Assembly (NCBI RefSeq): GCF_003334385.1
Contig: NZ_QOWN01000012.1
DNA: 64,000 nt
Strand: one strand, 5' to 3'
DNA from: Escherichia coli
GTDB lineage: Bacteria > Pseudomonadota > Gammaproteobacteria > Enterobacterales > Enterobacteriaceae
Below are positions 53,702 through 54,058 of this stretch, one piece after another (the stretch's first letter is position 1; each line of letters begins with the position of its first letter). The position numbers were made by a program, and so were the translations under genes. A model generated the notes under the pieces. It was not told the DNA's origin. It worked only from the letters and a program-made list of their open reading frames with translations, and made no database searches.

Positions 53702-53727
53702 GATATTCCTTTCTGCTTATCTCAAGG

Positions 53728-53750
53728 CCCGCTCTGCGGGTCTTTTTTTC
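53728..53750 (+). terminator. fbaA intrinsic terminator
   Basis: CCCGC-TCTG-CGGG followed by TCTTTTTTT. Confidence 0.8.
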
Positions 53751-53764
53751 GCCAAAAGCAAAAT

Positions 53765-53870
53765 TGCCTGATGCGCTACGCTTATCAGGCCTACACGTAT
53801 CCTGCAATATATTGAATTTGCAGGTTTTTGTAGGCCGGATAAGGCGTTCACGCCGCATCCGGCATGACAA
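53765..53870. repeat. REP/BIME element
   Basis: GCCTGATGCGCTACGCTTATCAGGCC and GGATAAGGCGTTCACGCCGCATCCGGCA units. Confidence 0.8.
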
Positions 53871-54058
53871 AGCGCACATTGATATCTGTCTGAGCCCCGC
53901 TCTGCGGGGATTTTTTCGCCAAAAGCAAGGTGATTCAGATGAGAAATCTGTGATCTATTTGGCAAAATTATGCTTTATTGTTTACCCTTGTCAGACTGCC
54001 CGTCATAAGGCGGCGGAGTGTATTTCTCCATTTTGAGTCAGTTGAAAAGGAATATTGA

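Follow-up and report, generated by a model that had tools for sequence, protein, structure and literature searches.

The spacer between fbaA and mscS in the E. coli DNA analysed here, a stretch of 64,000 nucleotides referred to below as the window, carries two near-identical terminators with a BIME between them. This arrangement raises the question as to whether the second terminator is a footprint of the arrival of the element, as the initial annotation had proposed, and, if so, by what route the duplication arose and what has become of it since. In the window, fbaA, encoding class II fructose-bisphosphate aldolase, occupies positions 52622..53701 of the + strand (translation starting MSKIFDFVKPG, stop codon at 53699-53701), and is followed on the same strand by mscS, encoding the small-conductance mechanosensitive channel, at 54059..54919 (ATG at 54059); the former is assigned from the RefSeq annotation of identical E. 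coli DNA, and the latter from the list of open reading frames together with the RefSeq annotation of identical DNA. The spacer, 53702-54058, contains terminator copy A (T1; 53726..53761, + strand, 36 nt), a BIME-1 of the RIP type (53762..53893, 132 bp, to which no strand is assigned) and the duplicated terminator copy B (T2; 53894..53928, + strand, 35 nt), an order denoted T-B-T, where T is a terminator and B a BIME. The initial annotation was right in placing a genuine BIME between the two copies, but its limits of 53765-53870 were not those found here. A perfect 10-nt inverted repeat, ATATTCCTTT and AAAGGAATAT, also pairs the two ends of the spacer, at 53703-53712 (just after the fbaA stop codon) and 54046-54055 (in the ribosome-binding region of mscS). 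A functional role for this complementarity was considered and rejected: by our estimate, chance alone would give approximately 0.2 such pairs in a region as large as this, the left arm varies among E. coli haplotypes (GATATT or GTCATT), and it is not conserved in Citrobacter.

The repeat finder reported a 24-nt direct pair with 88% identity (53725-53748 and 53893-53916) and an adjoining 18-nt direct pair with 100% identity (53744-53761 and 53911-53928), at a spacing of 167/168. When placed in register, copy A (GGCCCGCTCTGCGGGTCTTTTTTTCGCCAAAAGCAA) and copy B (GCCCCGCTCTGCGGGGATTTTTTCGCCAAAAGCAA) are identical in 32 of 36 columns, the differences being three substitutions and one indel, with copy B having one T fewer. 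The 18-nt match is the longest exact direct repeat in 53500-54200, and the maximum across 1,000 dinucleotide shuffles was 13 nt. Both copies were returned as terminator-like by the terminator scan; repeat finder, shuffles and scan together uphold the claim that near-identical terminator copies bracket the BIME, the copy coordinates first given for them being right to within 1-2 nt. In each copy, scan and fold place a G+C-rich hairpin directly 5' of a U-run. The T1 hairpin (53724-53744) folds as a 9-bp stem at -14.1 kcal/mol (z -3.3) and is followed by a U7 run (53743-53749) and the tail CGCCAAAAGCAA, while the T2 hairpin (53895-53909) consists of six G-C pairs at -11.6 kcal/mol, followed by an A, a U6 run (53911-53916) and the same tail. 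Of the three substitutions, two (G53727 to C53895 and T53741 to G53909) exchange a G-U for a C-G pair and, as judged from the predicted folds, are compensatory.

Both terminator copies mark real RNA 3' ends in vivo. For MG1655, published Term-seq (Adams et al. 2021, PMC7815308, supplementary file 1) records two 3' ends in the fbaA-mscS spacer. The first, classified as 'primary fbaA', lies at MG1655 3070119/8 and is represented by 160,555 reads in LB at OD 0.4, 54,607 in LB at OD 2.0 and 120,854 in M63, while the second, an 'orphan' 3' end at 3069950, is listed in LB at OD 2.0 only, with 44,902 reads and a 61-nt context that is exactly copy B (PMC7815308). These ends map to window positions 53747 (T1) and 53916 (T2), 169 nt apart in both MG1655 and window coordinates, and position 51 of each 61-nt context falls inside the U-run of the respective copy; the Term-seq ends are located per U-run, and the intrinsic class assigned here is a prediction from hairpin and U-run. 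T1 is the main fbaA terminator. We infer that T2 serves as a back-up terminator in late growth, for read-through transcripts that would then carry the BIME-1 stem-loops, so that transcription of fbaA would be halted twice ahead of mscS; the T2 3' end is listed in one of three conditions only, and may also derive from some transcript unrelated to fbaA read-through. The T2 reads in LB at OD 2.0 are close in number to those of T1, and T2 is absent from the exponential-phase lists. Its appearance in LB at OD 2.0 only may reflect growth-phase-dependent read-through, or the stability of the BIME-containing RNA.

The element between the terminators combines a y-type and a z1-type REP in inverted orientation, and is near-identical to the canonical copies of BIME-1 found at yidB and gldA. 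BIME-1 elements are defined by such y and z1 REPs with a long, conserved and often IHF-binding linker between them (PMC3333891). Inverted-repeat arms (53781-53795 and 53829-53843 by the repeat finder), alignment to the canonical copies and the fold of the sequence delimit a y iREP at 53766-53794, an L linker with a putative IHF-site motif at 53795-53829, a z1 REP at 53830-53863 and a right-flank motif at 53864-53893. The linker is conserved with other BIME-1 copies, and the putative IHF motif, CAATATATTGAAT, is by eye one mismatch from the IHF consensus. A 133-nt segment comprising the BIME folds at -51.6 kcal/mol (z -5.2). The canonical copies at yidB and gldA span TGCCTGATGCG to CAACAATCTGAG, flanks that are partly decayed at fbaA-mscS. 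Furthermore, the 30-nt stretch that separates the z1 REP from copy B is not specific to this locus: in the less decayed form of E. whittamii, it recurs across each E. coli genome, the median being 26 places, and the right-flank motif joined to the REP end gave 42 of 42 matches at other loci, as befits a dispersed, multi-copy BIME-1. The Rfam family ES036 (CssrF) matches the linker at 53787-53829 on the - strand, with 47.3 bits, above the gathering score; this 'sRNA' family in effect models part of a dispersed repeat, and its overlap with the BIME-1 linker here calls for caution when ES036 matches are annotated as sRNAs. Elsewhere in the window, a further REP cluster is indicated by a match to naRNA4 (CssrE) at 25332-25402 (+), and a tRNA is present at 13839-13911 (-).

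Does the second terminator come and go with the element? Among 5,426 complete E. coli genomes, the whole 501-bp query was matched by 3,720, and a large class matched in 334 bp, exactly 167 bp less. In the aligned short alleles, T1 is followed directly by the right flank of T2, no BIME is present, and the difference is again exactly 167 bp. The BIME spacer with T2 is complete in 3,780 genomes, and a lone terminator is found in about 1,650; the number of terminator places per genome is one, two or three (9,209 in total), which fits approximately 1,650, approximately 3,770 and six genomes, respectively, and six genomes carry the BIME-T-BIME junction. The locus is a T(BT)n array of head-to-tail units, that is, a variable-number tandem repeat, with n = 0 in about 30% of genomes, n = 1 in about 70% and n = 2 in 0.1%. 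The short allele is found in Nissle 1917, ATCC 11775 and APEC O2-211, which we take to be phylogroup B2 strains, and the long allele in K-12, O157:H7, O26 and O111 strains. Among the 5,426 genomes, no BIME-free genome has two terminators, each having exactly one, so that BIME and second terminator are indeed gained and lost together, as had been anticipated.

The n = 2 alleles are of two kinds. SW070917 has the structure T1-B-T2-B-T2, its two 167-bp units being 100% identical, while AH04, AH02, CT01, CX08 and CX12 (the AH04 group) have T1-B'-T*-B-T2, with units that differ by 14 substitutions and three gaps. TRF called a period of 167 with 2.2 copies in SW070917 and a period of 169 with 2.2 copies in the unclassified Escherichia sp. 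E1V33, and no array in the window itself. Intermediate structures were sought in the same 5,426 genomes. The predicted T-T junction without a BIME was found in none of them, the predicted B-T junction gave no match, and the predicted T-B junction was matched by O157:H7 TR01 (NZ_CP033605.1) only, in an N-containing assembly. This match was rejected as a real T-B allele: the TR01 spacer contains Ns and lacks both the left half of the BIME and copy B, and most probably reflects an error of assembly or consensus calling at palindromic repeats. A search for a donor or paralogue of the spacer with copy B elsewhere in E. coli found none, the median being one place per genome.

To place these alleles in a wider context, species-representative genomes were scanned with MscS, which returned 80 loci, including four non-coli Escherichia lineages but no E. 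albertii, E. fergusonii, E. marmotae, E. ruysiae or Salmonella. Outside Escherichia, fbaA lies directly upstream at 52 loci; at 49 of them, the spacer measures 158-218 bp and contains no REP motif, and most of these 49 spacers have one terminator, 19-25 nt after the stop codon, with a conserved GCCCGC/GCGGGC stem. Since other genera possess a single terminator with this conserved stem and no REP, T1 is taken as the ancestral fbaA terminator. By this comparison, a single-terminator spacer of about 190 bp is ancestral for the family, and BIME and second copy are an Escherichia-specific gain, in agreement with the proposal that the BIME was acquired together with a terminator duplication. Unrelated spacer expansions are present in Intestinirhabdus (405 bp) and Entomohabitans (494 bp). 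At 24 of the 80 loci (L011-L016, L018, L019, L021-L023 and others, including Trabulsiella, Citrobacter amalonaticus, Pseudocitrobacter and Buttiauxella), fbaA is not within 1.5 kb upstream of mscS, which is preceded by unrelated genes, including one for a LysR-type regulator. Insertions seem to have occurred repeatedly in the fbaA-mscS spacer.

Within Escherichia, two lineages labelled E. coli, L007 and L008, whose mscS is 95.4% and 88.9% identical to that of the window, both have the short allele. E. whittamii (mscS 89.2%) is T-B-T with a decayed second hairpin, and Escherichia sp. E1V33 (mscS 90.6%) is T-B-T-B-T, its units differing by two substitutions and one indel. The allele state does not track the local mscS tree, L007 (95.4%) being short and E1V33 and E. 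whittamii (89-91%) long. The units of E. coli, E1V33 and E. whittamii have a common left junction, AAGCAA/AATTGCC, and a common right junction, CTGA/GG... (the slash marking the junction), and the derived GGGGA followed by T6 in T2 is common to E. coli and E. whittamii. The same junctions in all units imply one founding insertion, subsequently inherited or exchanged within the genus. An exact-protein look-up with FbaA for other Escherichia species returned E. coli only (98-100% mscS identity), providing additional haplotypes. Strain E69, labelled 'E. coli' (L008, CP089930.1), shares 99.1% identity with the window in fbaA and only 88.9% in the adjacent mscS, a contrast that implies a recombination breakpoint at or near the spacer. 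A variant tail of copy A, AAAAGAAA instead of AAAAGCAA, is shared by PapRG-04-4 and further long alleles of E. coli (L098, L105 and L107) as well as by Escherichia sp. E1V33, which hints at exchange of this segment between lineages. As the T2 hairpin is decayed in E. whittamii and weakened in the middle copy of the AH04 group, and T2 as a whole is missing in 30% of E. coli genomes, T2 is not universally kept and is dispensable.

The long allele is also subject to ongoing contraction and expansion. Among the 46 genomes whose short allele has the right flank GGTGATTCAG are EC96 and EcN_Sk. Their short alleles match the window at 100% identity across 1,500 bp of left flank and 1,534 bp of right flank, with only the 167 bp missing, and are read as recent precise deletions because the rebuilding of a long allele with the same T2 substitutions from a short one is implausible. 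The two identical units of SW070917 are read as the reciprocal, recent duplication, and the T1-type right arm in the T2 of PapRG-04-4 suggests conversion between the copies. T1 and T2 now serve as direct repeats in unequal recombination or replication slippage, by which the 167-bp block of BIME and terminator is precisely lost or doubled in different strains. The name EcN_Sk presumably denotes a Nissle 1917 derivative; EcN_Sk is identical to the window over about 3 kb, unlike the B2 strain APEC O2-211, in which the 3' end of fbaA has diverged by about 3%.

Such deletions lead to the question as to whether T-B-T is ancestral for the species, every short allele in E. coli being a secondary deletion. 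The same junctions and T2 signature in the more distant E. whittamii and the same junctions in E1V33 argue for this reading, as do the precise deletions on a haplotype identical to the window and the occurrence of short alleles on at least five flank haplotypes. However, L007, the closest non-coli lineage (95.4% in mscS), and L008 are both short, the B2-type short alleles lie on flanks about 3% diverged for which no matching long allele was seen, and the data agree just as well with a polymorphism that was retained or a long allele that was transferred laterally. A chimeric terminator with a T1 left part and a T2 right part, which would prove deletion, was found in none of the short alleles, the best matches being only T-run length variants. 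The reading is plausible, though we lean slightly against it. Long and short alleles are each found on several flank haplotypes, and for most short alleles (e.g. those of the phylogroup B2 strains) loss, a retained old polymorphism and lateral exchange fit alike.

How, then, was the terminator duplicated in the founding event? The empty allele provides a starting point, as CAAGG stands at either end of its 36-bp segment (TCTCAAGGCCCGC ... AAAAGCAAGGTGAT). In window coordinates, the left CAAGG, read from short alleles including that of L007, is at 53723..53727 (+), and the right one, at the junction of T2 with the unique sequence upstream of mscS, is at 53926..53930 (+). Both BIME junctions are at CAA/GG. 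Furthermore, the right end of the canonical BIME-1 (AATCTGAGG) and that of the BIME in the window (ATCTGAGG) resemble TATCTCAAGG, located upstream of T1. With low confidence, we weakly favour a single, replication-associated event in which a BIME-1 copy would have been added after ...AAGCAA at a CAA/GG site, synthesis then resuming out of register at an upstream CAAGG or AGG microhomology and re-copying the terminator. Put in its most explicit form, namely that BIME-1 was added by replication template switching and not by cut-and-paste, a restart 36 bp upstream having duplicated the terminator, the proposal is a tentative and rather unlikely one. If it were true and general for BIME-1, the way in which REP and BIME elements colonise genomes would be recognisable, at young sites, by flanking duplications that are long and of variable length.

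The duplication may instead have preceded the element: slipped-strand mispairing at CAAGG would have produced a 36-bp T-T tandem, and a BIME-1 would later have inserted at the CAA/GG junction between the copies. With CAAGG on both sides of the exact duplicated segment, the empty allele is a classic substrate for tandem duplication, and the same CAA/GG target would exist at the T-T junction. Nevertheless, this route is an unlikely one, since the T-T allele is absent not only from the 5,426 E. coli genomes but also from the sampled lineages of Escherichia beyond E. coli. Moreover, instability is to be expected of a 36-bp tandem repeat, and an insertion exactly on its junction would be required of the BIME.

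Two independent insertions of BIME-1, at the CAA/GG on either side of the terminator, could also have given rise to T-B and B-T lineages, from which recombination within the BIME would yield T-B-T. This scheme is compatible with an insertion mechanism that makes no target duplication, it explains both junctions, and it would account for the approximately 10% divergence between T1 and T2 by their origin in different lineages. It requires, however, two insertions in the same orientation 36 bp apart, and with no B-T allele seen and the N-containing TR01 assembly as the sole T-B-like allele, we consider it decidedly unlikely.

Even less probable is a true target-site duplication, in which the transposition machinery of the BIME itself would have produced the 36-bp repeat through a staggered cut at the two CAA/GG sites and fill-in. 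The repeat does abut both ends of the element exactly, both junctions are at CAA/GG, and the lack of any T-T, B-T or clean T-B allele among 5,426 genomes fits a one-step origin. To our knowledge, however, a 36-bp stagger is far outside the behaviour of known transposases. A target-site duplication would leave a repeat of characteristic length at every insertion, and the two other BIME-1 copies examined, at yidB and gldA, have no flanking duplication. In addition, the transposases linked to REP and BIME elements, the TnpA(REP) family of IS200/IS605-type Y1 enzymes, act on single strands and make no flanking target repeats (PMC3333891). On these two grounds, the absence of target repeats in the Y1 family and at the other copies, a classical target-site duplication is very unlikely, and the insertion footprint first suspected is not to be understood in that sense. 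Finally, the idea that copies A and B are independent terminators, alike by chance or convergence, can practically be discarded: a hairpin followed by a T-run is generic to intrinsic terminators, but the 18-nt identity runs on through the non-structural tail CGCCAAAAGCAA, the shuffles never exceeded 13 nt, and the short-allele alignments and two-unit alleles show the copies coming and going with the BIME as one 167-bp unit.

Taken as a whole, the account of a derived, Escherichia-only T-B-T arrangement, with one founding insertion, direct-repeat dynamics thereafter and both terminators marking 3' ends, is one that we regard as probable. The initial annotation was thus correct as regards a terminator duplication flanking the BIME, but had missed the T(BT)n array, with n = 0, 1 or 2, and the use of both terminators in vivo. 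The locus provides a natural experiment, in which otherwise near-identical strains differ in the number of fbaA terminators (one, two or three) and of IHF-type BIME-1 elements (zero, one or two) directly ahead of mscS; such strains may be used to measure the effect of a back-up terminator or BIME on 3'-end formation, mRNA stability and the insulation of the downstream gene. A BIME-1 gain for which both junctions and the empty site are known is, moreover, rare material on the spread of BIMEs, and the 167-bp unit is a length polymorphism by which about 30% of E. coli genomes can be distinguished from the remaining 70%.

That E. coli strains are polymorphic for the presence of BIMEs was reportedly described by Bachellier et al. 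in 1997 (Genetics 145:551), and the fbaA-mscS polymorphism is of this known type, one intergenic site having a whole BIME-1 in some natural isolates and cleanly lacking it in others. Recombination between direct repeats and terminators in tandem are likewise standard. The indel at fbaA-mscS differs in that it includes 35-36 bp of duplicated host terminator, and can be explained by ordinary direct-repeat recombination with no BIME-specific excision. Literature searches on fbaA, mscS and terminator, and on Term-seq with fbaA, returned nothing useful. Two features of the locus appear to be undescribed: the bracketing of a BIME-1 by a duplicated host terminator, and the conversion, by this duplication, of a normally single-copy BIME-1 into a small variable-number array.

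As compared with BIME-1/RIP (repetitive IHF-binding palindromic) elements generally, the element at fbaA-mscS has the same inverted y and z1 REPs, L linker and flanks, dozens of copies per genome and an intergenic 3' position, and differs in being bracketed by a duplicated host segment. BIME-1 is described as occurring as one copy per locus (PMC3333891), as it does in the window, whereas two copies in tandem, with host terminators between, are present in the six E. coli genomes comprising SW070917 and the AH04 group, and in E1V33. In this respect, the locus is reminiscent of tandem BIME-2 arrays, which also have a strain-variable number of near-identical units at a fixed locus (PMC3333891). 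The BIME-2 units are, however, REP-linker-REP, and their amplification is thought to be carried out by TnpA(REP), whereas the unit at fbaA-mscS combines a BIME-1 with a host terminator, and it is homology between host sequences that drives the variation. The closest mechanistic parallel is deletion and duplication between short direct repeats, by replication slippage or RecA-independent recombination (e.g. PMC5426353): the repeat of 18 nt exact, or approximately 35 nt imperfect, lies 167 bp apart, the precise loss of one repeat with the intervening DNA and the reciprocal duplication are alike, and no mechanistic difference is evident, so that fbaA-mscS represents a natural, population-level example. 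Lastly, the locus resembles the tandem intrinsic terminators found after highly expressed genes, with two hairpin-plus-U-run sites in series on the same strand, both of which have mapped 3' ends. It departs from these in that the fbaA T2 is a paralogue of T1 that arose together with a repeat-element insertion, and is optional within the species, being missing from about 30% of genomes.
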